A stretch of 64,000 bases of DNA from a virus. Under the pieces are notes generated by a model. It worked only from the letters and a program-made list of their open reading frames with translations. It did not search any database and had not been told where the DNA came from. A program made the translations under genes and the position numbers. Shown piece after piece: positions 711-62,493 of this stretch (positions are counted from its first letter, which is position 1; every line of letters starts with the position of its first letter). The stretch is from IMG/VR virus record IMGVR_UViG_3300013132_000028, positions 32,001 to 96,000 of that record; one strand, given 5' to 3'.

Positions 711-5909
<5,199 letters not shown>

Positions 5910-19348: not shown

Positions 19349-21358
19349 CTAGAGCTCAACTGTTGATGCTGCTACGCCGCCCAACGTGTCACGGAGAGCT
19401 GCTGCTGCACCGTTGACAGAGATGGTGGATGTAACTGCGAGGCTTTCGATACCGACCTTGGCGATACCCTCGAAGGTCTCAACGAACATCTTGTAGTCGT
19501 TGGTTCCGACGAGCGTGGAGTCGCGGATGATACCTAGGTCTAGTGTTCCGCCGTCTAGGAACAGGAATGTTCCCTCGGCAAACAGACGCCATGTGAAGGT
19601 GTCTGGGAATTCGACCATGCCACCTGCGCTCTGTGCACCAAAGACACCTGCGTCCGTCGTAAACGTAATGTTTACGTTGCGGCTTGCAAGGTAGCCTTCG
19701 ATCTCAGAGTAGGTTGCACCTAGGTTGCCATCACCAGGCATGTTTAGTGCCAAGTCAGCGATTATCGCATCTCGTACCCATGCAGGAACGATTGCTGCGA
19801 GTGGTGCGTCTGCCTCTAGGCGGTGACGTGAACGGTAACCAGCAGCAGCGCGACCAATTTGTACTAGGAAGTCGCGTGCTACACCGATTACGTTGGTAGA
19901 TGTAACTGCTACTGAGCCTGCGTCGATCTTGTCAAGTAGGTACTGCTCAGCAATACGTGAGTGCTGAATCAGACCTAGCTCGTTGTGTCGAGCTACAAGC
20001 TCTGGATATGCACGAGACATCAAGTTACCAAACTGCATTTGCATCGTGATTGCATCAGTTGCAACGGTGTTTTCACCGGCTGCAGTAACGGTCAAGCTAG
20101 CCTTTGTAGCGCCGGCTGGAGTGGTGTCTGTGGCGTTTGTCCAAGTTCCGACAGCGTTTGCTGCACCTGACAGAGTCGGTGGAGTGATGAAGCGGATACC
20201 GCCTCGATCTGCTTGGAACTTAGGAAGTGAGTCACGCACCGGACGGCCTGTTGTGCCAAAGCCAAAGATGTCGTAACGAACTTCGAATGGTGCGGCATGG
20301 CCACCGGAAGCGACGAGCGCTTCAGGTCCGGCTACTGCCTGTATCTTATTCCAGTTTGCTTCTGCATCCTGGGTTAGTTGACGGTCCTCTGGATATGAAG
20401 TTGCCAGAGATGCGACGATGTGCTGCTCTCCGTCGCCACCATTTACACGGCGTAGGCCGTGTAGGCGCTTGACGAAAGCGTCTGCTACATCTGTCATGTT
20501 TGTCATTGGTGCTCCCGCTGTATAGCCAGGAATGTCAGCGCCTGCCGTGATCGCCACGGGCGCGGCTTCTGTCGTCCTGTCTGTAGGGCGGCGGTCAGCT
20601 GGAGCTTGGACTTCCAAGCTTTCTGACTCGGTTACGGCGGCTGTCACTGTTGTTGCCTCCTGGGTTTCTACTGCGGTTTCTTCCACAGTCTCGTTGCTGG
20701 TTGCTGCGGCTTCGGCTTCTTTTGCCGGTTCTGCTACTGCTTCTGCAGTTGCAGCTGTCGCTAGCTCCGCGACCTCATTAGAGGCCTCGGACTTTTCTTT
20801 CTTTTCTTCTTCTTCTTTTGCCTCTTTAGCCTTTAGTTCTTCGGCTGAATCGGCTTTTACAGTATTCTCGTCAGCGGCTGCCTCTGTGGCTGCTGCTGCT
20901 TCGACTACTGGTTCAGCTGTTGCTGGTTGTTCTGGTTGTTCGGATGAAAGCTCCGCAGCCTTCTCCGTCTCAGTTGACGCCTCGGTCGTTGCTGCTTCTT
21001 CCTTCTTTTCCTCGGCTTTTTCTTCCTCGGCTGGCACTTCTGCTTCGCCTTCGGCTTTGGCCGGCTCTTCTTCAGGTTGATTTGCAGCTTGTTCCGTGTT
21101 GTCTGCGTTGCCACGCACTCTTGCGGCAGCTTCTGCTGCACGCGCTGCTAGCTCTGAAAGCTCTGCCTCGCGGCGAGCTACTTCTGAGCGAACAGTGTCG
21201 AGCATGTCGGCAAGCGACGTCATCGCGTCGACTGTCTGTGGAGATGGCTCTTCGCCTTCAACCGTTTCGAATTCGCTGACGATAGCACTCTGTAGCTCTG
21301 TGAGTTGTTCCTCAGTGAGCTCAGACAGCTTGTCTAGCATTTCTTTGATACGGTCCAC
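19349..21358 (-). CDS. Major capsid protein with fused N-terminal acidic scaffold
   Basis: About 265 aa Glu/Ala-rich N-terminus, then ALVASGG..AP, RPVRDSLP.F.A.RGG, GGTLDLGIIRDS.L...ND...F.E.FEG. Confidence 0.9.
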   Translation of the reverse strand: MDRIKEMLDKLSELTEEQLTELQSAIVSEFETVEGEEPSPQTVDAMTSLADMLDTVRSEVARREAELSELAARAAEAAARVRGNADNTEQAANQPEEEPAKAEGEAEVPAEEEKAEEKKEEAATTEASTETEKAAELSSEQPEQPATAEPVVEAAAATEAAADENTVKADSAEELKAKEAKEEEEKKEKSEASNEVAELATAATAEAVAEPAKEAEAAATSNETVEETAVETQEATTVTAAVTESESLEVQAPADRRPTDRTTEAAPVAITAGADIPGYTAGAPMTNMTDVADAFVKRLHGLRRVNGGDGEQHIVASLATSYPEDRQLTQDAEANWNKIQAVAGPEALVASGGHAAPFEVRYDIFGFGTTGRPVRDSLPKFQADRGGIRFITPPTLSGAANAVGTWTNATDTTPAGATKASLTVTAAGENTVATDAITMQMQFGNLMSRAYPELVARHNELGLIQHSRIAEQYLLDKIDAGSVAVTSTNVIGVARDFLVQIGRAAAGYRSRHRLEADAPLAAIVPAWVRDAIIADLALNMPGDGNLGATYSEIEGYLASRNVNITFTTDAGVFGAQSAGGMVEFPDTFTWRLFAEGTFLFLDGGTLDLGIIRDSTLVGTNDYKMFVETFEGIAKVGIESLAVTSTISVNGAAAALRDTLGGVAASTVEL

Positions 21359-24450: not shown

Positions 24451-26330
24451 TTTTTGGCCTTAGGTACTACTGAGGGAGTGGCAATCGGAATCTGGTTTGG
24501 CTGGTAGTAGACGTTCGGTCCCTTTCCGATAGCGGCTCGTTGTTCGCCTGCTTTGTCGCGTTTAGCAGTTATCTTAGAGGCGTCTTCTTCCGGTTTATCG
24601 ATCGTTCCCTCCCGGCCCTTAGTGATTATAGGGTTGTACCAACCCCTGTTTACGTATCTCTCTACTCCGTCTTTTCCCTTGTACTTCTGGTCTAGCCAGT
24701 CACGCAGCATCGGGTCATTGTAGGCGTTTGGCGCGGTTCTCACCGTTCCGAAAGTCACTGGCTTGGCTGGCGTCGCTGCTGGTGCCGTTGCTGCGTCTGC
24801 GTTTCCAGTCTTTAAGTTGCTGCCTTGGGCAGGCGTCGTACTTACGTTGGACGCTGCCTCCGGACTCACGCGCTGAGCTGCTGCCCAAGCGCTCCAGTCT
24901 CTCATCAGAAGCGAGACGTCGTTCTGTGTCAGCGCCGGTAACAGTCCTGGCAGCGATATTGCAGAACTGCCCTGCGGCACTCTAGGCTTGGCCAGTAGTC
25001 CAGTCGTGTCTAGCCTGCCTCCATCAAATCTTTCGGCCTGACTTTGCACCTCAGTCTTGTCGTCCACGCCCTGTGTAAACTGTGCTCCGACGGTAACTAG
25101 TTTGCCGTCAGACAGCTCCACGCTAACCTGACCGGTCTTGCTGTCTACGGACTTGACGGTGCCGACCGCGGACCTGTCGCCGCCTATGAATACTTTTGTA
25201 CCGGCCGTCGCAAACTTTCCGGCCGCGTCTCTGACCTGTACTTTCGCGTTGTCTGAGCGCTCGTCGGACGTGTACACTCCGGGAGTGCTGTCTTTGCTCA
25301 GACCCTCTTCGCCCGCTGCGGTGACCGAGGCCCGGTCTATGAGCTCCCAGTCTATCTCGTCGGCAGCGTCGGCTACCAGCATAGCCTCCTCTGGGTCTAG
25401 CATGGACGGTCCGATACTTGAGTACGGATTTTGCTTTAGGAATGCAGAAACTTTCATGGCAGACATCGCGTCTATGGAGACGTGGATTCTGGGCGCCTTG
25501 TCGTACGGTTCGTCCAAAGATTTATCGTACGTATTGAAGTCGTGCGCAGTGTGCCCTAGGTCTTCCCATCCATCGCCGTCCCAAACAAAAACTTCTCCTT
25601 CTGGCTGTACTTTGTACAAACGGTCGATGCCGCCGTTCTCTAGATTTACGCGGACTACAAACTCTGGAGCTAGCTCTACGTTTATCGACTCAGCGTCAAA
25701 AAATTCTTTAACGTCTTGGGTGTTGTCGCCGTATAAATCGTATTCCGCCTCGAGCATGCCGGAGTATGCGTCAGCGCGAACACTTTTCTTCTTTTTATTT
25801 TCTCGTTCGACGATTGCTCTCGCCCAGCGCCAGGCAGGGTCTCCACCCCAAAGTGCCCAGGCAATACGACCTCTGCTAGGGTAGCCGTCTTCTCCTGGGC
25901 CCCAACCCTTGCCCTTCTTGTCTACCTCGTGACGTGGGAAGTACTTTGCAATGTGCCTAATCTTTCTGATGCCGATCTGTCCGCCGCGGGCCAGTGTTCT
26001 GGCGCTGTTCACGCCGACCGGAGTTCCACCGCGGTTGTGTTTTGCACGCCACTCTAGTCCTCGTTTTGCCTCTGCCTGTGCGGCCTTTGGCACAGTGTAC
26101 ATGCGGTCTCCGCTTGCAACTATACGAATGTCGAGGTCTGTCAGTGCGCCTAACGCGAGGTCTGTCATCGCCCTAGTCGGTTTGTCGTGCGGCTTCTGCC
26201 ACTTTGCACTTGCCAGCAGGACACCGGTAGTTCCAGTACGTACAATCGTATTGGTCTCAGTGTCAAGCACGGCTGCACGACTTTCATCTACGAACAGATA
26301 AAGACTTCCGTACTGACCCGCTAGCCTCAC
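24447..26330 (-). CDS. Modular head-associated protein
   Basis: AKRGLEW..GGT.VG..YF.RHE..IAWALWGG module; QVRDAAGKF followed by an SH3-like barrel; between portal and protease. Confidence 0.7.
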   Translation of the reverse strand: MRLAGQYGSLYLFVDESRAAVLDTETNTIVRTGTTGVLLASAKWQKPHDKPTRAMTDLALGALTDLDIRIVASGDRMYTVPKAAQAEAKRGLEWRAKHNRGGTPVGVNSARTLARGGQIGIRKIRHIAKYFPRHEVDKKGKGWGPGEDGYPSRGRIAWALWGGDPAWRWARAIVERENKKKKSVRADAYSGMLEAEYDLYGDNTQDVKEFFDAESINVELAPEFVVRVNLENGGIDRLYKVQPEGEVFVWDGDGWEDLGHTAHDFNTYDKSLDEPYDKAPRIHVSIDAMSAMKVSAFLKQNPYSSIGPSMLDPEEAMLVADAADEIDWELIDRASVTAAGEEGLSKDSTPGVYTSDERSDNAKVQVRDAAGKFATAGTKVFIGGDRSAVGTVKSVDSKTGQVSVELSDGKLVTVGAQFTQGVDDKTEVQSQAERFDGGRLDTTGLLAKPRVPQGSSAISLPGLLPALTQNDVSLLMRDWSAWAAAQRVSPEAASNVSTTPAQGSNLKTGNADAATAPAATPAKPVTFGTVRTAPNAYNDPMLRDWLDQKYKGKDGVERYVNRGWYNPIITKGREGTIDKPEEDASKITAKRDKAGEQRAAIGKGPNVYYQPNQIPIATPSVVPKAKK

Positions 26331-27370
26331 TGGGACTCTCCCTTCCGACTATCGTCGGTAATCGGTCCGCCTGAAATCCACGCATCGCACGTGCGAGCAG
26401 ACGCACACTTGAAGTCTAGCGCCTCGCAGTAGCCTAGGTCTGCGGCTTCGATCGTGTCCCAGCCAGCGGAGGCGGCTAGTCCACTCGCTATGCACTCTTT
26501 CATCTCTGAGGTCTGAATAAAGGCCGCGCAGTTGCCGCAGCGGCTTGTCTTTGCCTCTTCGATCGTGACCGACCACTTTTCAGCCTTCTTCTGCCAGAAC
26601 TCTTCGTTTGGTTCCTCTGGGTTCATGGGACCGTATCCGATGTCGTCTATCGCATTCTGACGATTCTCTAGGTTTAGCGCCAAGTCCTGTGTCGCCGGCG
26701 GGCAGACAAACTCCCCGGCGGCTTTAATCGTTTTTTCTTTTGCTGGACGTTCTACGTCCTCGCGGGAGAGCGGCTTTCCACTTTTTTCTGCCTTGTCAAA
26801 CGTCTCTATGAAGTCAGGAGAAACCTCTACGATAGTCATGCCGTCGAACTCTGTGTGCTCAGGCGGAACCCTGAACCAGGCCGAATTATTACGGCTAAAC
26901 ATTCCGGCGTCAGAGGTGTAAACTAGTTCCTGCACGTCTTGCGCGCTCTCGTCGAGTAGGGCGATTAGTGACTCTCCGTCTCCCGGGTCCCCTGGACTAA
27001 ACGCCATAATAGTCTCCCTCATGTACATACCTTCTAGGGCTTCGGCTGGAACTGGTACTCGAAGAGTCGATGCCCAAGACCCGTCTGAGTCTTGAAACGC
27101 CCTAACAGTGTACGCCTTGCCGTAGCTATTGAACGTTATTGTGCCACTACTTCTGTCTACTGTTACGTCGTTTTTGCTCCCTAGAGGATACTCTAGCACC
27201 TCAGATAGAGTAAACAGCGCCATTACTGGACCGTCCTCGTCGTGGTCAAACCAGGCAACCTCCGACACGGCGAAGGTCTCTCTCGGCTTGTCTAGAGTTT
27301 CAACTACGGCAGGGCCTAAGTATCCAGTTTTGTAGTCTTCCGGTATGGTAAGTTTTCTCTGCTCGGTCAT
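26327..27370 (-). CDS. Modular head-associated protein with C-terminal Cys-rich (HiPIP-like) domain
   Basis: CPPATQD..N..NRQ.AI..YGP.NP, CGNC..F, GYC..FKC..RTC.AW. Confidence 0.7.
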   Translation of the reverse strand: MTEQRKLTIPEDYKTGYLGPAVVETLDKPRETFAVSEVAWFDHDEDGPVMALFTLSEVLEYPLGSKNDVTVDRSSGTITFNSYGKAYTVRAFQDSDGSWASTLRVPVPAEALEGMYMRETIMAFSPGDPGDGESLIALLDESAQDVQELVYTSDAGMFSRNNSAWFRVPPEHTEFDGMTIVEVSPDFIETFDKAEKSGKPLSREDVERPAKEKTIKAAGEFVCPPATQDLALNLENRQNAIDDIGYGPMNPEEPNEEFWQKKAEKWSVTIEEAKTSRCGNCAAFIQTSEMKECIASGLAASAGWDTIEAADLGYCEALDFKCASARTCDAWISGGPITDDSRKGESQ

Positions 27371-27386: not shown

Positions 27387-30300
27387 TTACTTCTTCACCG
27401 GTATAAGGTCGTCCCACGATGAGGCGCCGTACTTCTCTGGCGGTACTCCATTGTCGAGTAGCATTTTAACTAGACGTTCACGCACCGCCGGGGACACACT
27501 TATGATGGCCAGGTCTGCCCACGATATTCCGTTCTTAAACATCAGTTCGTAGGTGCCTGATCCTGAAGTGGGCTTGGCTGGTTTTATCTCACCGATCGGG
27601 TCGGTCTCCTTCATGCGCTTTCCGTACTGGTCCTTGAAGTTGGCCCAGAAGTCCAGCCGTGAGTACAGCTTCAGCGGGTCAAAGTGAAAGTACGCGTGAC
27701 TGTCTGCTGCTACAGAGTAGGGCTTCATGGTTGCCTTAGGCTTCGTGAATAGGTAGTCTGCTCCCCCTGTTCTTATGTCTGCGTCGCTTGAGTCGCCCTG
27801 GCCACCAATTCCCTCTGTCCAGCGGACTGACGTGGCTTTTAGGCCGTCTTCCAGCATGAGCAGGTTGAACATCTCCTGGGCCGCTGAGTCTGCATTGTTT
27901 GCACCCTTGATTCCAAAAGAGTGAGTTATGGCGCCAGTCTCTGTTTTTTTAACCATGTACTCTGCTATTGCATTGCTCGTTCTGTACGACAGTCTGTCGT
28001 TTAGGTCGTAGGCCGGAGTGTCTAGGTTTAGCCACATCTGTTCATAAGGCAGTCCCAGCAGCTTCTCTATCGCCTTGAGCTTCGCCTTGCGGGCAGCTCC
28101 AACTACGTTTTTTGCCGGATCAATTTCTTTGCCAAAGATGCTAATTAGACGGTTTTCAGCCAGAACTCTTACGTCCTCTTTGGTTGCCGGTCTAGGGGCA
28201 CGCACTCCGCCTAGCTTCATGCCTCTTGCGATTGCGTTGGCGGTGGAGGTTGCGTCCTGCTGCTCTGGCACTAGTACCTCTACCCTATTGTGAAAAGCAA
28301 GTCCTTCTCGACTAGTATTCAGACTGCTCACCGGCTTTGAGTCTCTATTTGCTCTGTATACTCTGATAACTGCACCGGTAATTTTGTCCGTTATTACGTA
28401 TGTAGTTGTTTCATTGTAGGAAGAAGAGTACTCCACGTCCATCTGGCTACCAGACTTTACTATTGCCATGCTACCGTCTGCGTTTCTTCGCATCTTGGGC
28501 ATTCTTATGCCTTGGTTTATGAGTAGATCGTACTCGTCTGTGTTCGGCACTTTTTTGAGGAGCTCAGCTACTAGATCGTCTCCAGCCCAAGACGTGAGTT
28601 TGAAGCTGGCGCGTGTGTAGGTCTTGTCGCCGTCTACTATAGTCATCATGTGCACGTCTAGGTCTTCAACGTCTCCTGCGTCTACTGCAGCAGACCGACC
28701 GCGTGCTCCGGCGGCTGGGCTGCTCTGCACGTGCGCAACTGCGTCTACTAGAGACTTGACGCCTGCACCCGTGAGCTCGCTCTGCGACCAGTCTACGCTA
28801 GCTAAGTCTGGGTCGTCTAGCTCTGGTACGTTTACTCCGGGACCCGCCTCTGTCAGTTTTGTCTGGTCAAACAGCCTGCCACCCGTTACTTTGTCGACGG
28901 AGCGGACTTTTTTACTTCCGTCTAAGAACTGTACCTGTACGTAGTTCTCGTAGCCCTTTGCACCTGGAAAACCGTAGATCACACCCTCGTCGCCATTTGC
29001 GTCGGTCACGGTTACGCCTTTGTACAACCAGTTATTAAATCTGTCTTTCTTAAACTTTTGATTTGCGCCCGGCGGCGGTGCAAACTGGTCCTTAATCGGG
29101 GCAAGATCGTCTTTCTCAAAAGCTAAGCCCAGCCAGGTAGCGTGCGGACTGTCTGCCTGTACATGCTGAAAGTGTGGATTATCCTTGTAGTATTCGTTGG
29201 TCTCTGACGCCACCGTAATTTTTCCGTCGCTCGTAATTATTCCTGGTTTTGGTTGATCTTTTACACCAACTATAAAAACACCACTGTACTGAGAGTAAGC
29301 TACGTAGTCTATCTGCGACTTTTCTTTAGTGGTCTCTAGTGCGTTGTAGCGAGTAAACTCTTCTATGTAATTTTTTGCAGCGAGTGCGCCGTATTTAAGC
29401 GCAGAGTTTGTGTCAAATGGACCAAAGTCAATCTCGTTGTTGGCTACTGTTTTCTTGGTGGCGTCTGCCCACTCGTCTGGAGTGTACGACTTTAACGGAG
29501 ACTCAGACTGGCTGGACGAAGACGGCGGCGGTGGTGGATTAGGTACGGTCGGCTGCGGTGTGTTTATTTCGGTGCCGCTCTTTGGTGAACGAGTGCTCTT
29601 TATTACTGTCTTTCCACTGTACTCTACGTACTGTTGATTTCCGTTAGTGTGCTGTAGAAACATGCGAAACTTGTGCGTCTTCTTTCCTTTGTTGTAGGCA
29701 GCACCGTGCGACGACACGCGCGCCCAGCCGGAGCCGTACGGAATGTAGTCTCCAACTTTAAGATTTTCTACCTTGGTGTCTTTCTTTTCGTACAACTCTG
29801 GGTTGTCTAAGTCCTTCTTGTCTAGAGCCAGCGCTGGATTGCCAACCGGCGTCTTCGTGGTAGAACTCTTCGGCTCGGCTGCGCCGCTCTTTTCTTTCTT
29901 CTTTGCTTCGAGCAGGTTCTTGACTAGCTCCACCGCCTTGGCGTTGTTTCCGCCGATGTGCCAGTCGTACTTCTTGTCCGGGTCAAGCGAGTCCGGTGTT
30001 TTCCAGTCGTACAGCCTGGCGAATATAGCTGCACCGTCCGGGCTCTCAAAACGCATTGACCACTCTTGCTGTACTTTGTCGCCAGAGCCGTACTCGTACG
30101 GCTTGCCTAGAAGCTCGGTCAACTCTTTTGGAGTGTACTCCACGGTCTCGTTGAGAAAATAGCTACCAGACACAAACGTAGTCGTGTCGTTTATGTTTGT
30201 AACCTTGTACGAGTCTGTCGTGCCTAGCTGTGGCTCCGGCGGTGCGGTGTACTTTTGTTCGGCCGAAAGTTCTGCGGGCTTTGGCTTGACCGGGTCTGCA

Positions 30301-33300
30301 GACGCGCTTGCGCTTGACTCTATTAGGTGCGTAGAAAAGTTTTTCTTCTTTCCGCCGTCTCCTAGGTCTTCTGCAACTAGGTTTTTAGTTCCTGTTTTTG
30401 GGTTGTCCCAGCTGTTGAGCGGACGCACGGTGCGTTCCTTGCCGTTGTACACAAACTTCAACAGCTTTTTGTCTTTGATGGCCTTGCTTATCTGGTCGTG
30501 CAGTGCCTCTAGTGTTTCAGAAGTTTTCAGTACTACTGCGTCGTCAGCTGCTGTCGGCGCTGGCTCAGGGGATAAAGGGACGGCAGGCTCACTGCTCGGT
30601 GCTGGCGTTGTCGGTGCCGGTGTGTCTGGTTCACCGCCTCCAGGTCCCCCCTCCGGGAAACCTCCGTCGTCTACGATTTGCAGCGTCTTTGTCGTTTTCA
30701 GCTGCTTGTCTTTTTTGCCGTCAAACTTTACCCAGGCGTAGTCGGGGAACACGACACCTTTCTTTTTGTACACGTCTAACTTAGAGACTACGCCGACTTC
30801 GCCAGTCTTTGTAGACTTTACCTTCATGCCGGCCGCGATCGGTGTCTTGCCGTCAGCGGAGAGGCTCTTACCGACCGGACTACTGCCTTCGGCCGGAGTT
30901 TCGACTGCAAGTTTTTCTGGCTTGGGTGCGGACGCGTCTGCCTTGGCGTTTCTGTAGACGTCGCCGAAGAAGTTTTCTGGCTTCTCGTAGTAGCCAGCGG
31001 GCGCTTGTGTGTACGGACCTAGGTCAGCCTGTCTTAGCTCATTCCAGGTTTCGGTAAACTCGTCCATCTTGTCTAGCGGCACGCGTACTTGTATGTCGTA
31101 GGTGTTGTCTTGTGCCGTTCCTTCTGCAACGATGTACGGCACGCCGCGCTCTGCCAGGTCTACTGGTCCCTCGTCGCCGCCAAACCTAGGCATGTCGCCG
31201 CCTATGTCGTTCAGCGTTACCTCTACAAAGTTACCGTCGTCTGACAGCTTAGGCGGGTTGGCGTCGTCAAACCACTGCGTGTCTCCGGCTTTCTTTGCGT
31301 ACTTACTTGTGTCCACCTCTTCGGCCGTGATAACTGGTGACTTTACTACGTCTATCTTGTCTTTCTTGGCTACGTCGCCTGCTATGCGTAGATTTTCTGC
31401 GATGCTCTTAAACTCGCCGCCTTTGCCGTGCTTTTCTTGCATGTAGTCTGCAACTTTTTCTACTTCGTCCTGTATCTCTGCAATGTCGCCTGGATTGTCG
31501 ACTGGCTTTTTTTGTTGTACTGTCTTCTCTAGCTCGTCTAGTTTTTCTTTAAGGTCCAGGTCTTCTACCGGCAGGTCGGTCTGCTCCCTGTACATTTTAA
31601 TTGCATCCAGTGTCTCGTCTGCAAAGTCTTCTGCTATGACGTACGCGTCACCTGGTGTAAGCTCGTCTTCGTCAGCTGGTGCGGGTGCGTCTTTCAGGTT
31701 TTTGACCGTGACGGTGGTGTCTTTGTCAGTGAGTCCAGCGCGCTCGAGGATGTCCATTCTGCGCATCTCTAGCTTGTCTGCGACGGTCTTCTGCAGCACC
31801 GGCTCGTCTGGAAACGCGGCTGCCACGAGGCTGTCGATGTCTGCTCTGGTTATGTCCAGCAGCTTGGAGGCGCTGGCCTTTAGTTCTGGTTCGGTCATGT
31901 CTCCAAAGATTTTTGCGGCCTGCGGGTTCATGTCCGGGTCGCGAAGCGTCTCCCACTCGTCGGCCTTGTCGCCGAACAGCTCGCCCTTTGGCTTTCCCAT
32001 GGCGCGCATCAGCAGCGCACCGCCGGTGTCTACGCGGTTTGGCTTGCCGTCTACTGAGACTACGTTGTCCATGGCAAGACCGGCGACGTCCCAGTTGGCG
32101 AGCCAGGCGTCGACAGCAAAGCCGTTCTGCAGTGCCTTTTTGTAGCTAGGCTCGTCGATCTTCTTGGCCATGTCTGGCTTTGCGTCCGGCAGTATAGGCG
32201 AGACGGTGACCATGTTACCCGCCTCGTCCACGCCGAAGAACGTGTCGGCGCCGTCTACGTCTGCGCGGCGGTAGAGTGCCGAGGCCAGCACCTCGTTGCC
32301 GGCGTGCAGTGGACTCTTCGGTGTCTTTACGTAGTACTTGCTGCCGTCTGGAGCTTCGTACGTGCCGCCCTCGTTGGAGCCGAGCTGGTTGCCGACTTTC
32401 TTCCACCCTGTGATGTCGAAAGAGCTACCTACGCTGGTGCCGATTGCGCCAGTTGGGTTCTTAGACTTGCTGAGCGCTGGCTTGTTCTGTCGCGCTACGT
32501 CTTCTTCCGACGGTGGAGCTACCTCGTCTCCGGTGCCAGCCAGGTCGCGGAAAAACAGATTTGTGTTGACGCCCTGTATCTGCAGCGCGTCGCGAATGGC
32601 CTGACCGCTGACTAGGATGTCGGTGCCACCGTCGAGCGGATACTCGAGTATCGCGTATCCGGCGCTCTCTTCTTCTAGGTCTGGCTCGACTGCAATTCTT
32701 AGTGAGTCTATCAGCGTTTCAGTGTCCCAGTTGTCCGCGATGTACAGCGGACTGTCCGTGAATCCCTCTGGAAAGCCGGCTGCGACTTCGTTGCCGTCTG
32801 CCCCGTTGTACTCCGAGGCGTAGGCGTCGGTGTCTGGTAGGTTGTAGCCTTCCGGCAGGTCTATGCTTTCGTTCGGTATCAAGTAAGGCAGGTAGTTGCC
32901 ATCCTCGTTGATGCTAATGTTTTCGGCGGGCGTCAGCTTACGCAGTCGCACGATTCTTCGTCCGTCCTTGTCTACGACACTCTCGACCGCGTACTGACCC
33001 CAGACCAGCTCTCGTTCTTCTCCTATCGGTGTGCTGGTGCCATTGCCCTCGTCGATCACGACTACAAACGTGCCGTCTCCACTCTTGCCCTCTAGCACAT
33101 CGTCAATGTCTCCAGTAGCTTTTTTCCACGAGTCAGGTGGGAACGAGACCACGTTGCCCTCCTCGGACAGCGCGTCTGCAAAGCCCTGGTCATCTGAGAG
33201 GTCGTACGACTTCCAGACTTTCGTGGCGTTAGTGCCGGAATTTACTGCGGACATTTTTAGCAGCGCCTGCGCGGTTGCGTACTTAGCGTCGCTCGAGTTG

Positions 33301-36300
33301 AATAGCTCCGGCTCCGCCTCTATTGCGGCTATCGCCTCTTCCAACTCTCCTGGGTTGCCGTAGGCGTCGATCACTCCTTCGGTGAAGTCGTTGGCTTCGT
33401 CCTCGTCCATGCCGAGGGTGTCTTGCGCGTACTGGCGCAGCGCTGGGTTTACTCTCTTTTGTCCGTTGTCCGGACCCTCCATCATCCACGAGCCCCACAC
33501 TGCGCGGAACGGATCGTCGGCACTGCCAAACTTGTCCTGGTCGAAGTGCTTCTCCAGCTGTGTGATGTAGTCCTTGTCTCCGGGGTCAGCTCCAATAAAG
33601 TCGTTGTAGACTGCTTCGGTTGCCTCGTCTACTTCACCAGCAGCTATTTTTTCGTTGTACTGCTTCTTGTAGGCGTTCATAGCTGTAGAAAGTTCAAACG
33701 TCTTAGCCTGCTCCTCGTTTGTCTCGTCTATTTGCAGCTTGTCGTTGCCCTCGCTCAAAATCTTGACGGAGTCCATCTCGTCCAGGTCTGCCTGCGTAGG
33801 AAATACGTCTGCCAGGTCTGGAGACTCTTGGCCGACGGTCTCCTCACCCTTGCGGGAGTCTAGCAGCGCCTTTACATTTTTGTTTTCACCCAGCTTTGCG
33901 TCATACAGCTGTGCCACGTAGAGCTCTGCGTCTACGCCCTGTTCCTCGAGCGCCTTGTACAGCGCCTCAGCCGGCACGTACTCCGAGCCAGCGTTGAACT
34001 CGAGCATGCCGAAGCCAGAGGCAGGAGCAGTGTCCTTGTCCATGGTCTTGACGCCAGAGTCGGCGGCCTGCTTCTTTTTACTCTTTGGCTTTGGTCCAGG
34101 TTTTTTAGGCGCGTCTTCGTCCATCATCTCGTCGGGGTCAAAGTCGTCTATATCAGAGTCAAAGTCCTCGTCTGCGTATGCGTCAAACTCACTCTGCTTG
34201 TTTATGAGCGCCTTGGCCAGACTCTCGCGTAGCTCCGCCTCTGCGTAGCGGTTGCCGATCTCTACCGGGTCGTCAGTGTAGTCCGAGCTTTCCTGTCCCT
34301 CTGCTGGTCCCTCCGGAGAAAACGTTTCTAAGTTCATCTTGTAGGCGGTGCTCGGTACGCTGTACGAGAACGGTTTGGACTCTGTCGGCACTGTCTTCTT
34401 CTGCTGCTGCGGTGCTGCAGGCTTCTCAACGTCTTCTGGGCCGTCTAGTCGTGGCTTGCCAGCGACCATCTCGTCTATCTCGGTCGAGCTCCACAGGTTT
34501 CCGTTCTGTAGTCTCTCTGAGAGTTTTACTACTGATTTTTCGTCAGGACTCTGCTTGTCTGCCCAGGCTGCGTCAGCTGCTCTCTGTCTGATGTCATCTA
34601 CCTTTGCGTCTTTAGCTAGCGCCTCGACTATGTCTGCTCGTCTGGCGCTCTCTGCCTTTACCGCGTCGATAGTTTTTTGTTCTGCACCGATCTCTTCTAG
34701 GGTCTTGACTAGCTTGGCTCTCTTTTCAGCTGCGCTTTGTTTTAGTGCCTCGATAAACTCTGGTCTGTCTTTGAAGGTTTTGAACTCTAGGCCATCGGAC
34801 TGTCCAAACACGTACGGTGCACGGAGCGAGCCGTCTTCATTCTGTTCGAGTCGGGCCACTACTATGTCGCCGCCGTCGCTAAGCTCGAGTGCGTTGTTCT
34901 TTACAAACTCCGTGTCGTTGACGTCGTACTTTTTCGGAGTAGGGTCTGCGTCAAACAACTCTCCTTGGCCTGGGTCCAACGGGTTTAGTTCCTTGCCCAT
35001 GCCGCTGTCTTTGTACATTCCTGGTATGCTGACTACTTCGCTTGGTGGACGAACGTTCTTCTCGTCCGGCGTCACTGCTGACCAGCCTGGCTCGAGCGGA
35101 TTGCCCTGGTTGTCTATGCGGTCTGCGGCCTGTTTTTTGAGCATGGCCATGCGCTCTGCTACGTGCTCGGCGTGCAGTGCCTTGGCCTGCTCGTTGAACT
35201 TATCTACTTTTACCTGCCAGGCGTCCCACGTGTCGCTCTTTAGTCTGGCCTTTACCTCGCGCTCTTCTACGCTCTTGTCGAGTCTAGGCTCGTCGGTCTT
35301 AATGATTTTCTGTGTGTCTGCCCAGTTTTGTGCAACGCCGATCGGAACTAACTTTGGTTTACCGTTTGAGTCTTGGTCCATTCGGGTTGCGATGTAGTAC
35401 GGCTTTTGCTTGTCCCAGGCGCCGTTCTCGCCGTCGCCGATTAGCTCACGTACCTCACGCTTGTCAGGCTCTAGACTTTCCTGTGACTCGTTGTGTTTGC
35501 GTATTTCTGCGATGGTGTCTTTCAAACTTTGGTCTGGCTTGTCTACCTTTGTCACCGCGTACTCGTCGTCTGTGCTCATGTACGTCGTGCGACCCTGCAG
35601 AGTGTCCTTGTAAACTCTGAAGCCGGCTGGTGCCTCTACTAGTTTGATGTCTGCTTCAGTCAAAACTTTGTCTTTTGAGCTGTAGCGTGCTTCGCCCTTT
35701 TTATCTACGTCTACGCTTGGCTTGAGTACGGCCTTTACGCCGGAGGTGGCTTGGGCCGGTACTCTGTAAATCTTTCCGTCTGGTGTTTGTACGTCAAACG
35801 TGTCTGTGTCTACGTCTGCCGCCACAGTGCGTCCAGTTACCCAGCTGACCAAACCGTCTGCTGCCTTTAGCAGCCACCTAAGTCCGCCACCCATCTCGGC
35901 AAACTGTCCCTCTGAGTCGCGGCGTTGTAGCATTGCACGAGCTCTGCGGGCGGCTGACGAGTTACCGTCTTTTAGAGCTGCAACTATTGTCTGTGCTTCT
36001 ACACTTAGTACGTCGTTTGGTACAAATCGACCAATTACCGACTGAAGCTGTGCTACGGCGTGAACTTGCGCAGGAGTTCCAACAGGAGCGCCAAACGCAG
36101 ACGCTACGACTGTGCGAAGGTCGTCTTCCAGCCTTGGGTCCGTGGACAGCCATCGACCACGAGCCTGGCGCAGCGCCGAGGCAGTCATCGAGTGGGTGCG
36201 GCTGCACAGCGGGTGTGACAGTGGCAGCAGGTCTGTATTCTCTGCAAAAGTCGCCGTCTTGTTGCTTGGGTTCTGGCTCATGGAGATAAAGGTGCCTAAG

Positions 36301-36560
36301 TCGCGCAGCGCCTGGTACTCTCTGATAGAGAAGGACAGTCCTCGCGTGCGGTCCAGCGACCTGCGTACTACTGTCATGGCCGCGCGTTTCGTGACGCGAC
36401 GTTCTGGCAGCACCTTTGGATTCTCGTTGGCTAAGTACGCCAACACGCTGTTGTACAGCAGCTGCGCCTGCTTTTGTACGGTGAGTCGCTGTGGTCTCTT
36501 GGCCGTGGCCGCTTTTTTGTCGATGGCGTTTACGAGCTTGTTTAGTATGTCGCTGCTCAC
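27387..36560 (-). CDS. Giant multi-domain head-associated protein (HipA/PI-kinase-like, WYL, ADP-ribosyltransferase-like domains)
   Basis: 3057 aa. Kinase GSNEGG..YYVK..NEVLA..DAWLANWD..DN..RVD.GG; WYL-like KFVYNGKERTVRP..LVAED..KNF; C-terminal H..GL..DY.F..ELMF. Confidence 0.8.
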   Translation of the reverse strand: MSSDILNKLVNAIDKKAATAKRPQRLTVQKQAQLLYNSVLAYLANENPKVLPERRVTKRAAMTVVRRSLDRTRGLSFSIREYQALRDLGTFISMSQNPSNKTATFAENTDLLPLSHPLCSRTHSMTASALRQARGRWLSTDPRLEDDLRTVVASAFGAPVGTPAQVHAVAQLQSVIGRFVPNDVLSVEAQTIVAALKDGNSSAARRARAMLQRRDSEGQFAEMGGGLRWLLKAADGLVSWVTGRTVAADVDTDTFDVQTPDGKIYRVPAQATSGVKAVLKPSVDVDKKGEARYSSKDKVLTEADIKLVEAPAGFRVYKDTLQGRTTYMSTDDEYAVTKVDKPDQSLKDTIAEIRKHNESQESLEPDKREVRELIGDGENGAWDKQKPYYIATRMDQDSNGKPKLVPIGVAQNWADTQKIIKTDEPRLDKSVEEREVKARLKSDTWDAWQVKVDKFNEQAKALHAEHVAERMAMLKKQAADRIDNQGNPLEPGWSAVTPDEKNVRPPSEVVSIPGMYKDSGMGKELNPLDPGQGELFDADPTPKKYDVNDTEFVKNNALELSDGGDIVVARLEQNEDGSLRAPYVFGQSDGLEFKTFKDRPEFIEALKQSAAEKRAKLVKTLEEIGAEQKTIDAVKAESARRADIVEALAKDAKVDDIRQRAADAAWADKQSPDEKSVVKLSERLQNGNLWSSTEIDEMVAGKPRLDGPEDVEKPAAPQQQKKTVPTESKPFSYSVPSTAYKMNLETFSPEGPAEGQESSDYTDDPVEIGNRYAEAELRESLAKALINKQSEFDAYADEDFDSDIDDFDPDEMMDEDAPKKPGPKPKSKKKQAADSGVKTMDKDTAPASGFGMLEFNAGSEYVPAEALYKALEEQGVDAELYVAQLYDAKLGENKNVKALLDSRKGEETVGQESPDLADVFPTQADLDEMDSVKILSEGNDKLQIDETNEEQAKTFELSTAMNAYKKQYNEKIAAGEVDEATEAVYNDFIGADPGDKDYITQLEKHFDQDKFGSADDPFRAVWGSWMMEGPDNGQKRVNPALRQYAQDTLGMDEDEANDFTEGVIDAYGNPGELEEAIAAIEAEPELFNSSDAKYATAQALLKMSAVNSGTNATKVWKSYDLSDDQGFADALSEEGNVVSFPPDSWKKATGDIDDVLEGKSGDGTFVVVIDEGNGTSTPIGEERELVWGQYAVESVVDKDGRRIVRLRKLTPAENISINEDGNYLPYLIPNESIDLPEGYNLPDTDAYASEYNGADGNEVAAGFPEGFTDSPLYIADNWDTETLIDSLRIAVEPDLEEESAGYAILEYPLDGGTDILVSGQAIRDALQIQGVNTNLFFRDLAGTGDEVAPPSEEDVARQNKPALSKSKNPTGAIGTSVGSSFDITGWKKVGNQLGSNEGGTYEAPDGSKYYVKTPKSPLHAGNEVLASALYRRADVDGADTFFGVDEAGNMVTVSPILPDAKPDMAKKIDEPSYKKALQNGFAVDAWLANWDVAGLAMDNVVSVDGKPNRVDTGGALLMRAMGKPKGELFGDKADEWETLRDPDMNPQAAKIFGDMTEPELKASASKLLDITRADIDSLVAAAFPDEPVLQKTVADKLEMRRMDILERAGLTDKDTTVTVKNLKDAPAPADEDELTPGDAYVIAEDFADETLDAIKMYREQTDLPVEDLDLKEKLDELEKTVQQKKPVDNPGDIAEIQDEVEKVADYMQEKHGKGGEFKSIAENLRIAGDVAKKDKIDVVKSPVITAEEVDTSKYAKKAGDTQWFDDANPPKLSDDGNFVEVTLNDIGGDMPRFGGDEGPVDLAERGVPYIVAEGTAQDNTYDIQVRVPLDKMDEFTETWNELRQADLGPYTQAPAGYYEKPENFFGDVYRNAKADASAPKPEKLAVETPAEGSSPVGKSLSADGKTPIAAGMKVKSTKTGEVGVVSKLDVYKKKGVVFPDYAWVKFDGKKDKQLKTTKTLQIVDDGGFPEGGPGGGEPDTPAPTTPAPSSEPAVPLSPEPAPTAADDAVVLKTSETLEALHDQISKAIKDKKLLKFVYNGKERTVRPLNSWDNPKTGTKNLVAEDLGDGGKKKNFSTHLIESSASASADPVKPKPAELSAEQKYTAPPEPQLGTTDSYKVTNINDTTTFVSGSYFLNETVEYTPKELTELLGKPYEYGSGDKVQQEWSMRFESPDGAAIFARLYDWKTPDSLDPDKKYDWHIGGNNAKAVELVKNLLEAKKKEKSGAAEPKSSTTKTPVGNPALALDKKDLDNPELYEKKDTKVENLKVGDYIPYGSGWARVSSHGAAYNKGKKTHKFRMFLQHTNGNQQYVEYSGKTVIKSTRSPKSGTEINTPQPTVPNPPPPPSSSSQSESPLKSYTPDEWADATKKTVANNEIDFGPFDTNSALKYGALAAKNYIEEFTRYNALETTKEKSQIDYVAYSQYSGVFIVGVKDQPKPGIITSDGKITVASETNEYYKDNPHFQHVQADSPHATWLGLAFEKDDLAPIKDQFAPPPGANQKFKKDRFNNWLYKGVTVTDANGDEGVIYGFPGAKGYENYVQVQFLDGSKKVRSVDKVTGGRLFDQTKLTEAGPGVNVPELDDPDLASVDWSQSELTGAGVKSLVDAVAHVQSSPAAGARGRSAAVDAGDVEDLDVHMMTIVDGDKTYTRASFKLTSWAGDDLVAELLKKVPNTDEYDLLINQGIRMPKMRRNADGSMAIVKSGSQMDVEYSSSYNETTTYVITDKITGAVIRVYRANRDSKPVSSLNTSREGLAFHNRVEVLVPEQQDATSTANAIARGMKLGGVRAPRPATKEDVRVLAENRLISIFGKEIDPAKNVVGAARKAKLKAIEKLLGLPYEQMWLNLDTPAYDLNDRLSYRTSNAIAEYMVKKTETGAITHSFGIKGANNADSAAQEMFNLLMLEDGLKATSVRWTEGIGGQGDSSDADIRTGGADYLFTKPKATMKPYSVAADSHAYFHFDPLKLYSRLDFWANFKDQYGKRMKETDPIGEIKPAKPTSGSGTYELMFKNGISWADLAIISVSPAVRERLVKMLLDNGVPPEKYGASSWDDLIPVKK

Positions 36561-37357
36561 TGTGCCACCTCCTGTCTCGGCAGTAGGTCTAGGTCCTTGG
36601 AGGCGGTGCTCAGCTCAGCCAGTGCCAGTGCACGCTCGAACGGAGACTCTCCGTCTCGTACGGCGCGTAGCCAGGCCGCTCTGATGGCCGGCTCGGCTTG
36701 GTAGCCTAGTCCAGAAAACTCTGTCAGGGCGAGGACTGCTTGCTCTGGGTTCTCGTACTCACTCGGCTCTAGCAGCACGACAGAAAGTTCATCGGTCCAC
36801 GCTACTTCGGCCGAAGCAAGTATCGAGTTGCTTTTCTTGGTCGAACGCGGGTGCTTTGCAGGAAGCAAGTCGTTGTCAGTGGTGTAGTTCGCGTTCTTTG
36901 GCCTGCCGCTCCTCAGCAGTTTTAGAAAAGCGTTGACCCTAGCTGCGGCCCACTGGTCGCGCGTCATGCCTGGACGGTGACTGCCGGAGAATGCTCCTGC
37001 GCCGCGTCTGTACACTGCCTTGAGCATAGCGCTTGACGCCTTGCGTCCCTCCGGTGCCTTCTCGTTGTGCTTGCGTACTTTCTCGGCGAGCATGGCTTCA
37101 GTCCGCTTTGAAAACTTAATTGACTTTGACTTTTTTGCGGTGGCAGACTTTGGCTTGTTTTTACTGGAGCCACGTACGCGCTCGCTGCGCTTTGCCTTCG
37201 GATGACGCTTGCCGACGGCCAGTTTCTCGATGTTCGAGGCTTCGTCTGGCACGCAGTTAGGAACTAGCTTTCCGTTTTTTCTTTTCATTCCGACTTGTTT
37301 GTAGCCCTTCCAACACGGCTTGGCGGCGCTCACGATGCTCTCTTCTTCGTACGACAC
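36557..37357 (-). CDS. Modular head-associated protein
   Basis: PCWKGYKQVGMK..VPNCVP module and basic VYRRGAGAF..SHRP..QWA.ARVNAFL module; directly after portal. Confidence 0.7.
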   Translation of the reverse strand: MSYEEESIVSAAKPCWKGYKQVGMKRKNGKLVPNCVPDEASNIEKLAVGKRHPKAKRSERVRGSSKNKPKSATAKKSKSIKFSKRTEAMLAEKVRKHNEKAPEGRKASSAMLKAVYRRGAGAFSGSHRPGMTRDQWAAARVNAFLKLLRSGRPKNANYTTDNDLLPAKHPRSTKKSNSILASAEVAWTDELSVVLLEPSEYENPEQAVLALTEFSGLGYQAEPAIRAAWLRAVRDGESPFERALALAELSTASKDLDLLPRQEVAQ

Positions 37358-37359: not shown

Positions 37360-39147
37360 CTAGGCCTTTGGCTCAGTTGGCAGTTCACCTGGGTCGGGTG
37401 CCTGTGCTGGCTCCCGTTCCGCCGGTGGTGCTACGTCTGTTGTCGGCTCCTCTGTCGTTTCTGTCGCTTCTGGTTGTGTTGCTCCTCGTGCAAGGTCCAT
37501 GACTCGTTGTACGTCTGCAGGCAAATCTTCGGTGGCGTTACCACGAACTCTGGCCATGGTGTCCGGTGTAAACACTGTAAGCATGGCTTCTGTAAGCTCT
37601 GGAGTAATCTGACCCTTCTCTACTAGTATGCGAAGCGCTACCTCTGTCTCCGACGGTGCGTCGGCGCTTGAAAAGCCGTGAGCGCTGCGCCAAGCGTCTC
37701 CAGAAATAATGTGTCGGTCGTAGCCTAGATCTGCGTCTGATGCGCGGTCGTTGCGCGTGGACACGGCGCTCGGGTCATACCAAATAGTTAGCTTGTCTAC
37801 CTCTGACGGAGTGTACCCATTGCTGATTAGGTACGGTCTGAAGTACACTACGGTGAGCGCGTCTACAATCAGCAGCATCAGCGGCTCGATGTGGGCTTTG
37901 TACATAGACTCGTCGATCTGCAGCGCGTTTGAGTACTTGATGTTTGCCATGCCGGTGACTACGTCCTTAGGAATGTCAATACCCTGCAAGATACGCTCCA
38001 GCACTCTGTCGGCACGCTGAGCCAGCTCAGGGTCAAACGAGCGCTCAAACTTGAACTGCTTGATCTTGTCGCCGAGCTCTGCAGGTCCGCGAATGATGAG
38101 CGGAACGACTGCGCTGGCGGAGTCCTCGTCGCGGATTGGCGTGGTCATCGCGTCGATGAGCTGGTCCTCGAACTCGTCTTCTGCTTCCTGCGTGACTGCT
38201 CCCGGGTTGAGCAAGTCGTCGTCAATTACGTCCGGGTCACCGCTGGCGGCGACGGACAAACCGTCTGGTAGGTACAGTGCTCCAGCGTTTAGGCGCGAAC
38301 GAGCTGTGGCACGAAATGTTCTGTTTAGCAGTAGCAGCTCAGCGCAGAGATCGAGCATGCCGCGTAGGCTGGAGTCTGCCTCGTCGGAGAAGCGAGGGTG
38401 TGCTCTCCAAATGCGTCCGACAAACGCGTTGCCAGGTAGCTCATAGCCGCCTCGTCTCGAGCCGGCCTGTCCACCGCCCATCTGCTCACGACGGCTGATG
38501 AGTGAGAATGATCTGTTCTTGTTGGTGACGGCGACCACCTCGTCGGTGCTTTTAATGTCCCAAGACTCTGGAATACCGGAACCAGGTCTAGCCGGTACCT
38601 GTACTAAATAGCACTCGCCACAAACACTGAGATTCAGCGCTGCGTCTCGCAGTAAACCAGGTTGACCACCGTACGCGGAGTCCAGGCGGGTGATTGCGCG
38701 CTCCGCCGCCATTGCTAGGTTTTTGTCTACACTTTGTACGTCTCTCACTGACTTAGGCGCCTCTGACGGATCGTCGATTATTGCGGGATAGAGACGAATA
38801 CGCGAGATTACTGAGGCCACTAGATTGAAGGCGTACTTGATCTCGCCGATGGCGTCGTAGTACTCCCACGCTTCTCTCTGCCAAGCAGAGCTGGCGGAGT
38901 TGCGGCGAAGTCTAAATTGTTCGTACTCGTCGCGGCTGTTCATCTTTACCTGCACCGCAGCCGCGGTCATTACACGCGGTGAGTTAAAGGGCCCTGCCGT
39001 TGCCGGAGAAAGAAATATAGACGACAGTCCTCTTGAACTGGGAATGACTGTGTTAGAAATAGTTTTGTCAGCCGCGGAAGATGCACGCAAAGAAACGGCC
39101 GATGTCGTAGGTTCGTCAGAGCTTGGAGTACGTCTGAATATGCTCAA
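37360..39147 (-). CDS. Portal protein
   Basis: WQREAWEYYD.IGE, RIWRAHP..ADS, RSRL..G.L.LP, SA.VP.II, LTIWYD; TTG start with AGGAG RBS. Confidence 0.88.
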   Translation of the reverse strand: MSIFRRTPSSDEPTTSAVSLRASSAADKTISNTVIPSSRGLSSIFLSPATAGPFNSPRVMTAAAVQVKMNSRDEYEQFRLRRNSASSAWQREAWEYYDAIGEIKYAFNLVASVISRIRLYPAIIDDPSEAPKSVRDVQSVDKNLAMAAERAITRLDSAYGGQPGLLRDAALNLSVCGECYLVQVPARPGSGIPESWDIKSTDEVVAVTNKNRSFSLISRREQMGGGQAGSRRGGYELPGNAFVGRIWRAHPRFSDEADSSLRGMLDLCAELLLLNRTFRATARSRLNAGALYLPDGLSVAASGDPDVIDDDLLNPGAVTQEAEDEFEDQLIDAMTTPIRDEDSASAVVPLIIRGPAELGDKIKQFKFERSFDPELAQRADRVLERILQGIDIPKDVVTGMANIKYSNALQIDESMYKAHIEPLMLLIVDALTVVYFRPYLISNGYTPSEVDKLTIWYDPSAVSTRNDRASDADLGYDRHIISGDAWRSAHGFSSADAPSETEVALRILVEKGQITPELTEAMLTVFTPDTMARVRGNATEDLPADVQRVMDLARGATQPEATETTEEPTTDVAPPAEREPAQAPDPGELPTEPKA

Positions 39148-39254
39148 GTTTTTCTCCTGCACGGTCGTTTGGGCACGGAGTATGACGTCTGTCCCGGAGA
39201 ACAATTTTCATACGCGGTGATGCGGCAATCATACACGCAAAATGGGCAGTGCTA

Positions 39255-48172: not shown

Positions 48173-48263
48173 TCGACCACTTCCCTTCGTCTTTCGTCTT
48201 TGTCCAACCGGTTGGTTGAATAGATGTATTATACTATAGTGGAGCGACAAAGTAAAGCATCTG

Positions 48264-59952: not shown

Positions 59953-59995
59953 TTCTTTCCTTTCGTCGTTTTGTCCTTGGCTCTATTATACCGTG

Positions 59996-62126: not shown

Positions 62127-62127
62127 C

Positions 62128-62490: not shown

Positions 62491-62493
62491 ATA

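Follow-up and report, generated by a model that had tools for sequence, protein, structure and literature searches.

Polyvalent proteins, as described in passages of PMC5512222 (Iyer 2017) for phages and conjugative elements, are multi-enzyme proteins predicted to be packaged in phage heads, with ADP-ribosyltransferases (ARTs) and kinases among their domains, and the same passages present Alt of phage T4 as head-packaged and injected. Head-packaged ARTs are also described in parts of PMC9503650, and sections of PMC7302621 (Jacobs-Sera et al. 2020) report VIP2-type ARTs in actinophage head-module MuF fusions (Percival gp4, Goodman), as well as Burro gp27, a virion-associated protein of more than 4400 amino acids (aa) encoded next to the portal gene. 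The stretch of DNA analysed here (the window, 64,000 nucleotides) covers positions 32,001 to 96,000 of the IMG/VR virus record IMGVR_UViG_3300013132_000028, which is 117,837 bases long and estimated to be 88% complete, and its head module encodes a protein of 3057 codons, hereafter the giant. We consider it fairly probable that the giant is a polyvalent head-module protein that is made late, loaded into the capsid, injected and active on host targets. To our knowledge, the evidence for polyvalent head proteins comes almost wholly from comparative genomics, and very few have been tested at the bench. The present locus offers three testable items, namely a kinase family, an ART-fold end domain and a motif shared by head proteins.

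A first reading of the window (the original prediction) had called this combination of domains undescribed, which is too strong, as polyvalent proteins (PMC5512222) and MuF-VIP2 fusions and giant virion proteins (PMC7302621) appear in the passages cited. The class itself is known; new are the fixed N- and C-terminal ends, the kinase family and the DarT-like end domain. A literature search, outside which the architecture supplements of PMC5512222 lay, did not find this kinase family in phages, the DarT-like end domain or the fixed ends. Like the polyvalent proteins of PMC5512222, the giant is one very long polypeptide with several enzymatic and binding domains, encoded among the late structural genes of a portal-terminase phage, and head packaging and injection, predicted for those proteins, are likewise deduced for the giant. 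Where 2-15 domains are expected of a polyvalent protein, the giant has a predicted kinase, a probable ART fold, a WYL domain, a degenerate ART and other modules, and the late, structural gene setting in a portal-terminase phage was also found. The kinases described in PMC5512222 are truncated Ser/Thr/Tyr-type domains of Verrucomicrobia-Chlamydia and Bacteroidetes, whereas that of the giant appears to be a full CtkA/HipA/PI4K-II-like domain, and the ARTs described there belong to the H-Y-D Tox-ART-HYD2 clade, whereas the end domain of the giant is H-Y-E and DarT-like. Moreover, Alt/VIP2 ARTs are said in those passages not to occur in genuine polyvalent proteins, unlike among the kinase relatives of the giant, where VIP2-type ARTs are frequent. 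T4 Alt provides the functional model of a capsid-delivered ART, and the giant holds a probable remnant of this VIP2/Alt type that, unlike Alt, is without the catalytic Arg and the STS motif. The phages Percival, Goodman and Burro resemble the present locus in having either an actinophage head-module VIP2 ART or a portal-adjacent giant, the giants showing few recognisable domains in the passages of PMC7302621 concerned; no similarity of the giant to the phages of that paper was found by tblastn at E<=1e-3.

The best supported domain of the giant is a kinase-like domain in its middle (Table 1). An AlphaFold2 (AF2) model built on an 18-sequence alignment had a mean predicted local distance difference test score (pLDDT) of 90.1 and a predicted template modelling score (pTM) of 0.87, and a Foldseek search of this model against the PDB returned 142 matches at E<=0.001, with Helicobacter pylori CtkA first (E 1.3e-6) and actin-fragmin kinase, WaaP, LepB, VPS34 and many eukaryotic-type kinases among the others. 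Comparison with 48,161 chains by VIA-align gave 60 chains at Z>=8, headed by CtkA (Z 16.5, root-mean-square deviation (rmsd) 3.4 over 210 residues), with further scores for CotH (14.7), PI4K-IIalpha (14.3), MavQ (13.2), HipA (12.2), Fam20 (11.9) and actin-fragmin kinase (10.5). The giant carries the motifs YYVK, NE, DAWLANWD and DTGG, and the Lys of YYVK, the helix NE, D..WL.N.D and D.GG vary little or not at all across sets of 18 and 35 sequences; their roles as ATP-binding Lys, helix-C Glu, D..N loop and metal-binding DxG were assigned by motif order. A bilobal atypical kinase fold with intact catalytic motifs is thus strongly supported at the level of the model, in agreement with the HipA/PI3-4-kinase-like domain of the original prediction. 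The domain shares fold, Lys, Glu, D..N loop and DxG with the CtkA/HipA/PI4K-II/CotH group (Z 16.5-12.2), from which it differs in its low identity (8-15%), in the lack of a Pfam or PDB-sequence hit and in being embedded in a giant phage protein. The HipA models PF07804 and PF20613 did not match the giant in Pfam at E<=1, and a search of the kinase profile against PDB sequences yielded ATP-synthase epsilon rows alone, which were rejected as chance matches.

The kinase segment is also the part of the giant with the widest distribution. When residues 61-3057 were compared by tblastn with 50,697 phage records, 20 records matched, comprising the metagenome-assembled Actinomycetia phage DSL-LC01, 11 Gordonia phage records and eight phages of Gram-negative hosts, and in all except DSL-LC01 (19/20) the match was confined to the kinase segment. 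In the cultured Gordonia phage Mareelih, gp77 (734 aa, kinase domain) directly follows the portal and is in turn followed by a separate ART protein, gp79 (1017 aa, PF03496), while gp117 of Pseudomonas phage Dolphis (1222 aa) joins the kinase segment to a C-terminal PF03496 ART. The protein gp79 was also tried as a relative of the giant and rejected, BLASTP giving just a small-module match (E 0.12). A HMMER scan of 1.84 billion cluster representatives, the clusters being defined at 50% identity, detected 4421 members of the kinase family at E<=1e-3, a number that falls to 3334 at E<=1e-10 and to 929 at E<=1e-30. Among the 149 best hits, not counting the query, 124 are 1000 residues or longer and 75 are 2000 or longer.

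The accompanying domains were counted with Pfam in 35 kinase-bearing relatives and with hidden Markov models (HMMs) of the modules, built here, in the 149 best hits. In the former set, ADPrib_exo_Tox (PF03496) was found in 19/35, NUDIX in four, Phage_Mu_F in three, HipA_C in two, and HipA_2, Phage_min_cap2, DUF2213, 2_5_RNA_ligase2 and ART-PolyVal in one each; Phage_Mu_F and ART-PolyVal are hallmark domains of polyvalent proteins, which gave no Pfam hit in the giant itself at E<=1. In the latter set, a VIP2-type ART was present in 79/149 hits (127 copies; 80 hits at a looser threshold), the RD module (residues ~190-345) in 65, the C-terminal block of the giant in 56, the block and the RD module together in 49, a DUF5824-like start in 37 and the WYL-type module in 20. 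These counts point to a very large atypical kinase family, missed in the giant by Pfam, PHROGs, NCBIfam and PADLOC, that usually occurs alongside ARTs in giant phage proteins.

The C-terminal block ends in a second candidate enzyme. The AF2 model of residues 2560-3057 (498 residues, 32-row alignment) had a pLDDT of 83.7 and a pTM of 0.85, and its top six Foldseek matches were DarT structures (E 6.7e-3 to 2.3e-2, probability 0.98-1.0, target template modelling score about 0.5), with the ART effector SopF next in rank; no match reached E<=0.001. VIA-align likewise placed DarT1 at the top (Z 7.2, rmsd 3.5, 154 residues), with Thermosipho DarTG (6.9), Mycobacterium tuberculosis DarT (6.5), Thermus DarT (6.3) and yeast Tpt1 (6.2) next and SopF, OspC3 and CopC ranking lower; these Z values call for caution, since models without a true counterpart commonly reach a best Z of 7-8 and this model is long. 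The DarT/Tpt1 matches span model residues ~304-498, equivalent to ~2863-3057 of the protein. Within this domain, H2880 and E3005 are conserved in 55/55 rows and Y2936 in 50/55, each lying on a predicted strand of the model, as expected for the H-Y-E clade; R2913, S2924, D2928 and D2977 are invariant as well (55/55), and R2968 is also among the conserved residues. It is likely, on the strength of model and conservation, that the end domain adopts an ART fold. Judged by conservation and predicted strands, H, Y and E may form a DarT-type catalytic set. An ART-like domain had been proposed at this end; the proposal is supported at the level of fold, with DarT ranked first by both structural methods, whereas no link was found at the level of sequence. 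The best structural matches (DarT, Tpt1, KptA) and the H/Y/E residues on predicted strands liken the domain to DarT, from which it differs in having no sequence-level similarity, no DarG-like macrodomain partner in the record and a place in a head-module protein rather than in a toxin-antitoxin pair. The likely ART-fold end domain, with its conserved H-Y-E set, is uncatalogued; the solved structures closest to it are of enzymes that act on DNA or RNA, so its target may be a nucleic acid. A search of ESM Atlas with the C-terminal 473 aa gave no lead (best score 0.76). A fold search of BFVD returned just weak uncharacterised viral proteins (best E 2.7e-3). A VIP2-type ART was tried for the C-terminal block and ruled out (hhalign Prob 0.08).

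A VIP2-type ART has probably left a trace further upstream, in the segment ahead of the kinase domain. Residues ~1095-1208 had no direct Pfam match, and a custom ART HMM gave a best score of -3.6 bits, over EERELV. An HMM iterated from residues 1080-1225 first gathered the equivalent segments of relatives of the giant and then overlapped with ART-HMM hits (28/63 in round 4, 115/150 in round 5), in a small database where drift is possible. With the rows overlapping ART-HMM hits removed beforehand, a family of 32 sequences was aligned by hhalign with 60 strong ARTs at Prob 81% and E 1.2e-5 over 98 columns, and the 'yRG', 'RSF' and 'E.E' of the family aligned with the R, STS and ExE of the ARTs. 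At these catalytic places the giant has K for Arg (VWKSY) and DSW for STS, and keeps E-R-E (EERE). The degenerate ART-like segment of the original prediction is thereby supported, probably as an inactive VIP2-type remnant. Such a loss (R to K, STS gone), together with the large acidic and poorly conserved stretches, would fit a fossil array in which most enzyme domains are inactive and the giant now serves as a bulk internal head protein or scaffold. We regard this as very unlikely, as the kinase motifs do not vary and 55/55 diverse relatives keep the H, R, S, D and E residues of the C-terminal domain, a pattern that indicates purifying selection on active sites.

Relatives of the giant are found as single open reading frames (ORFs) in other phages, with 3135 aa in an IMG/VR relative and 2800-3228 aa in five database proteins (P0153-P0157); the IMG/VR copies are ~90% identical, one of them being the 3135-aa ORF. 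DSL-LC01 has the same gene order, with a 3289-aa 'hypothetical protein' in the place of the giant, a gene left undiscussed in a number of passages of PMC10611076 on DSL-LC01. BLASTP aligned the two proteins at residues 21-341 (36% identity), in the kinase region 1337-1621 (44%, E 5e-61), at the C-terminus 2589-3039 (29%) and in part of the middle. The C-terminal 470 residues are common to 32 giants of 1935-4934 aa in the protein database, all unnamed or 'hypothetical', and other members of this C-terminal family carry UvrD-type helicase, RNase T, KTSC, NUDIX and WYL domains. Judged by these comparisons, the giant is one of a large family of giant proteins whose ends are fixed and whose middle is freely shuffled. 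The whole giant matched only PBP1_TM in Pfam at E<=1 (E 0.43, below its cut-off), and megablast of its gene against phages gave no match.

The position of the gene in the head module is the starting point for its proposed role. All on the minus strand, the order is portal, a 266-aa DUF5824 gene, the giant, a 347-aa gene, a 627-aa gene, the protease/scaffold gene and the capsid gene, so that the placement between portal and protease given by the original prediction is correct, with other genes intervening on both sides. The GTG start of the giant, preceded by an AGGAGG ribosome-binding site, overlaps the stop of the 266-aa gene as GTGA, an arrangement of translational coupling; the stop codon is at 27387-27389. 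In the 20 kb around the giant, promoter-like sites (7 against 6.2 expected from shuffles) and terminator-like sites (20 against 26.2) are not enriched, and the gene therefore appears to belong to a single long operon.

The N-terminal part of the giant shares features with its neighbours. Its first domain is related to the DUF5824 domain of the 266-aa protein (BLASTP E 2e-5; HMM of 54 relatives E 7.7e-14), and DLLPxxHP, invariant in this domain, occurs also in the 266-aa protein. DUF5824-type domains take here the gene position held by MuF in many phages; DUF5824 was not found mentioned in the literature. The best-conserved N-terminal feature, GGNS..AR..RA..Q.RD..G.FA.MGGG, lies in the RD module, where the giant reads QRRDSEGQF. 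When all six frames of the window are translated, RD..G[KRQ]F appears in four places, each within a real ORF. Three of these ORFs are head-module genes (those of the giant, the 627-aa protein and the protease/scaffold protein) and the fourth is a 128-aa ORF, compared with a chance expectation of ~0.2 per window that is a rough composition estimate and not a shuffle test. In DSL-LC01, Q.RD..G.F is present in four head-module proteins at equivalent places, including the 627-aa homologue. It is plausible from this distribution that QxRDxxGxF is a shared signal for capsid loading or for recognition or cleavage by the protease. Predictions of a complex between the portal and giant residues 1-345 scored 0.00 in both runs, which were made without controls and have no bearing either way.

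Packaging and injection are proposed because the post-portal position is conserved in the giant, DSL-LC01 and the Gordonia phages, because head-protein domains (Phage_Mu_F, Phage_min_cap2) are fused to the kinase domains of relatives, because QxRDxxGxF is common to head proteins, and because there are precedents in the passages of PMC5512222, PMC9503650 and PMC7302621 cited above. From the head-module position, an injected host-takeover or anti-defence protein may reasonably be inferred. If the place in the head operon reflected timing only, the giant could instead be a late enzyme of the cytoplasm, acting on host or phage components while virions assemble and staying unpackaged. The kinase and ART protein gp117 of Dolphis, which lies among small non-structural genes outside the head module, would agree with this, as would the indirect nature of the case for packaging. 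This alternative appears unlikely considering that the placement after the portal is also kept in the IMG/VR relatives, that the motif of the giant is common to the protease/scaffold and other head proteins, and that MuF and minor capsid protein 2 domains are joined to kinase domains of its relatives.

Several observations weigh against the giant as an injected, multi-enzyme polyvalent protein. Incorporation into the virion and ejection are inferred from context, for the giant and for the homologues found alike. The whole giant had no match in PHROGs, NCBIfam, PADLOC or PDB sequences, and no MuF (PF04233), ArdC-N or ART-PolyVal match in Pfam at E<=1. For the C-terminal ART, the scores are modest (Foldseek E 7e-3, VIA Z 7.2), a profile search against PDB sequences gave one chance row (E 0.27), the DarT HMM (PF14487) had no match on the phage record, and an ART family was found in 0/14 C-terminal slices from diverse members in Pfam at E<=10. 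A model search of the 88%-complete record found no Macro, ADP-ribosylglycohydrolase (ARH) or NADAR hydrolase that could give self-protection. Finally, a strongly acidic protein of 330 kDa could be mainly structural. The same record had no match to the PF03496 model and thus no second ART of this type.

The last of these points leads to the possibility that the giant is a core or ejectosome protein seated at the portal, which helps to carry the DNA across the thick actinobacterial envelope and whose enzyme-like domains are secondary or act on the wall. The core proteins of T7 and the ejection proteins of P22 are models for such a role. The position by the portal, the very large size and the long acidic region are compatible with it, as is a weak peptidoglycan (PG)-binding-like helical bundle (Z 5.0), and the ~250-kDa virion-associated giant of Microbacterium phage Burro provides a precedent in the passages of PMC7302621. 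However, conservation in the giant is highest in its enzyme-like parts, whose catalytic residues are invariant. Pfam detected no lysozyme, peptidase or transmembrane signature in it, and its middle is freely shuffled among relatives, as is usual for effector arrays but not for a fixed core. A mainly structural role is for these reasons improbable, and a structural role is in any case compatible with an injected polyvalent protein.

Under the reading as an injected polyvalent protein, the giant would be made late with the portal, protease and capsid proteins, would enter the procapsid by means of its N-terminal DUF5824-like domain and QxRDxxGxF module, possibly with trimming by the prohead protease, and would leave the capsid together with the DNA. 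In the host, the CtkA/HipA-like kinase domain would phosphorylate a host target and the DarT/Tpt1-like H-Y-E domain would move ADP-ribose from NAD+ to a host macromolecule, while the WYL domain and the small modules may bind ligands or hold the enzymes in place. The VIP2-type segment ahead of the kinase would be a dead remnant of the pairing of kinase and ART that is common in relatives. A wider proposal is that fixed-end giants form a cargo system of their own in actinophages that abound in the environment, with QxRDxxGxF as loading or protease signal, the DarT/Tpt1-like end as a delivered nucleic-acid ART that marks host DNA or RNA at entry, and the new kinase family alongside; taken as a whole this is unlikely, and if true it would mean that bacterial defence chemistry (DarT) has been turned into a phage weapon.

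The remaining segments of the giant are of a smaller scale. Residues 1-100 have a net charge of +11, whereas the total over residues 301-1900 is about -144, consistent with the basic leader and the long acidic region read from the sequence at the outset; within the poorly conserved part of the latter, two conserved islands, Y.P.G...S.D.TDDP and G.G.L.F..G.E.VPAEA, stand out. The segment around LKFVYNGKERTVRPL, in the region claimed as WYL-like, had no direct Pfam match (PF13280). An HMM of this segment and its relatives found four tandem copies in the relative P0174 (best at 834-937, E 3e-34), and Pfam WYL matches P0174 at 858-918, scoring 34.3 bits where the cut-off is 21.8; through this link, membership in the WYL-domain family is supported. 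The DKV..EW..LYDWK..WHIGG module also proved to be real. It resembles clusters of ~100-aa stand-alone viral hypothetical proteins without Pfam domains (ESM Atlas 0.95) and had one tblastn match (E 6e-4), a 103-aa phage protein, while a word-based search for homologues returned none. The gene of this 103-aa relative (MW202796.1, 1462-1773, uncultured phage) lies directly after an annotated antirestriction gene. This neighbour gene hints that the role of the module is early or anti-defence. Of the putative SH3-like barrels of the original prediction, the repeated modules of ~60 aa are real; two of them, the small modules 'a' and 'c', show a weak mutual relationship (E 0.0056), and both recur in relatives.

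Table 1. Predicted features of the giant, the shared motif and other genes of the window.
Feature	Residues	Coordinates	Strand	Basis or remark
Whole ORF of the giant, GTG start	1-3057	27387-36560	-	Full-length homologues in relatives
DUF5824-like N-terminal domain	~16-129	36174-36515	-	Paralogue of the domain of the 266-aa protein
RD module	~190-345	35526-35993	-	Many relatives begin with it
Acidic, poorly conserved region	~346-1079	33324-35525	-	Charge profile and consensus
Probable degenerate VIP2/Alt-type ART remnant	~1095-1208	32937-33278	-	hhalign and iterated HMM
Atypical protein-kinase-like domain, CtkA/PI4K-II/HipA-like	~1376-1626	31683-32435	-	AF2, Foldseek and VIA
Small beta-rich module 'a', 'SH3-like' in the original prediction	1893-1965	30666-30884	-	33/149 best kinase hits
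WYL-family domain	~2010-2095	30276-30533	-	One-step transitive link via P0174
DKV..EW..LYDWK..WHIGG module	2120-2225	29886-30203	-	ESM Atlas
Small module 'b'	2255-2325	29586-29798	-	Only close relatives, 5 hits
Small beta-rich module 'c', precedes C-terminal block	2502-2565	28866-29057	-	27/149 best kinase hits
Alpha+beta domain	~2593-2789	28194-28784	-	START/TBP/type III secretion system-chaperone-like matches, insufficient for assignment, VIA Z 4.0-4.7
Helical linker domain	~2793-2862	27975-28184	-	Weak MMP-2 propeptide (PG-binding-like) match, VIA Z 5.0, 51 aa
Likely ART-fold domain, DarT/Tpt1-like	~2863-3057	27390-27974	-	Foldseek, VIA, conservation
Q-x-R-D-x-x-G-[KRQ]-F, giant		35901-35921	-	Within the RD module
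Same motif, 627-aa protein		25212-25232	-	
Same motif, protease/scaffold		21985-22005	-	
Same motif, 128-aa ORF		15030-15050	-	ORF at 14838-15224
HslV/proteasome-like peptidase, 308 aa		39298-40224	+	phrog_1040; Pfam Proteasome just below cut-off
Portal		37360-39204	-	phrog_776, E 2.3e-101
Upstream 266-aa protein		36557-37357	-	Pfam DUF5824, E 1.3e-8
347-aa protein downstream of the giant		26327-27370	-	Without hit
627-aa head-module protein		24447-26330	-	phrog_2859; carries Q.RD..G.F motif
975-aa protease/scaffold fusion		21523-24450	-	phrog_859 and head-maturation-protease phrog_18402; TIGR01543 weak
Major head (capsid) protein		19349-21358	-	phrog_777
Second very long ORF, 1732 aa		711-5909	-	No PHROG match at E<=1e-5

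The genes around the giant indicate the kind of phage. The capsid protein has matches in 840 phage records, almost all of them with actinobacterial host names (Mycobacterium 495, Gordonia 184, Microbacterium 114, plus others), the closest being DSL-LC01 with 74% identity, and the genes for the major tail protein, adaptor, tape measure and Dit follow downstream of the capsid gene. The phage is most likely an uncultured siphovirus with actinobacterial hosts. At least 2001 database proteins are related to its portal at E<=1e-20, with 62-93% identity among the 120 matches listed, which suggests that this phage group is common in the environment and in metagenomes.

Some of the neighbouring genes show features of their own. 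In the 975-aa protein, an N-terminal domain is fused to a region resembling prohead proteases and to a helical tail of scaffold-like character, and its counterpart in DSL-LC01 is three separate genes, all annotated as capsid maturation protease, the last of which (183 aa) starts with the RD motif. The 347-aa protein has a Cys-rich C-terminus (CGNCAAF...YCEALDFKC...C). In DSL-LC01, a 'high potential iron-sulfur protein' is annotated downstream of the giant, with one small gene between, which is odd for a head module. The HslV/proteasome-like peptidase gene is divergent and adjoins the portal. The 1732-aa ORF lies beyond the tail genes and may encode a tail fibre or host-recognition protein. The window also contains genes for tRNA-Thr (CGT) and tRNA-Pro (CGG), at 48263-48336 and 59995-60069 (minus strand). 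At the end of the window, 62001-64000 has a G+C content of 0.70, compared with 0.49-0.62 in the rest, and many overlapping ORFs on both strands, which suggests a high-GC insert or gene.

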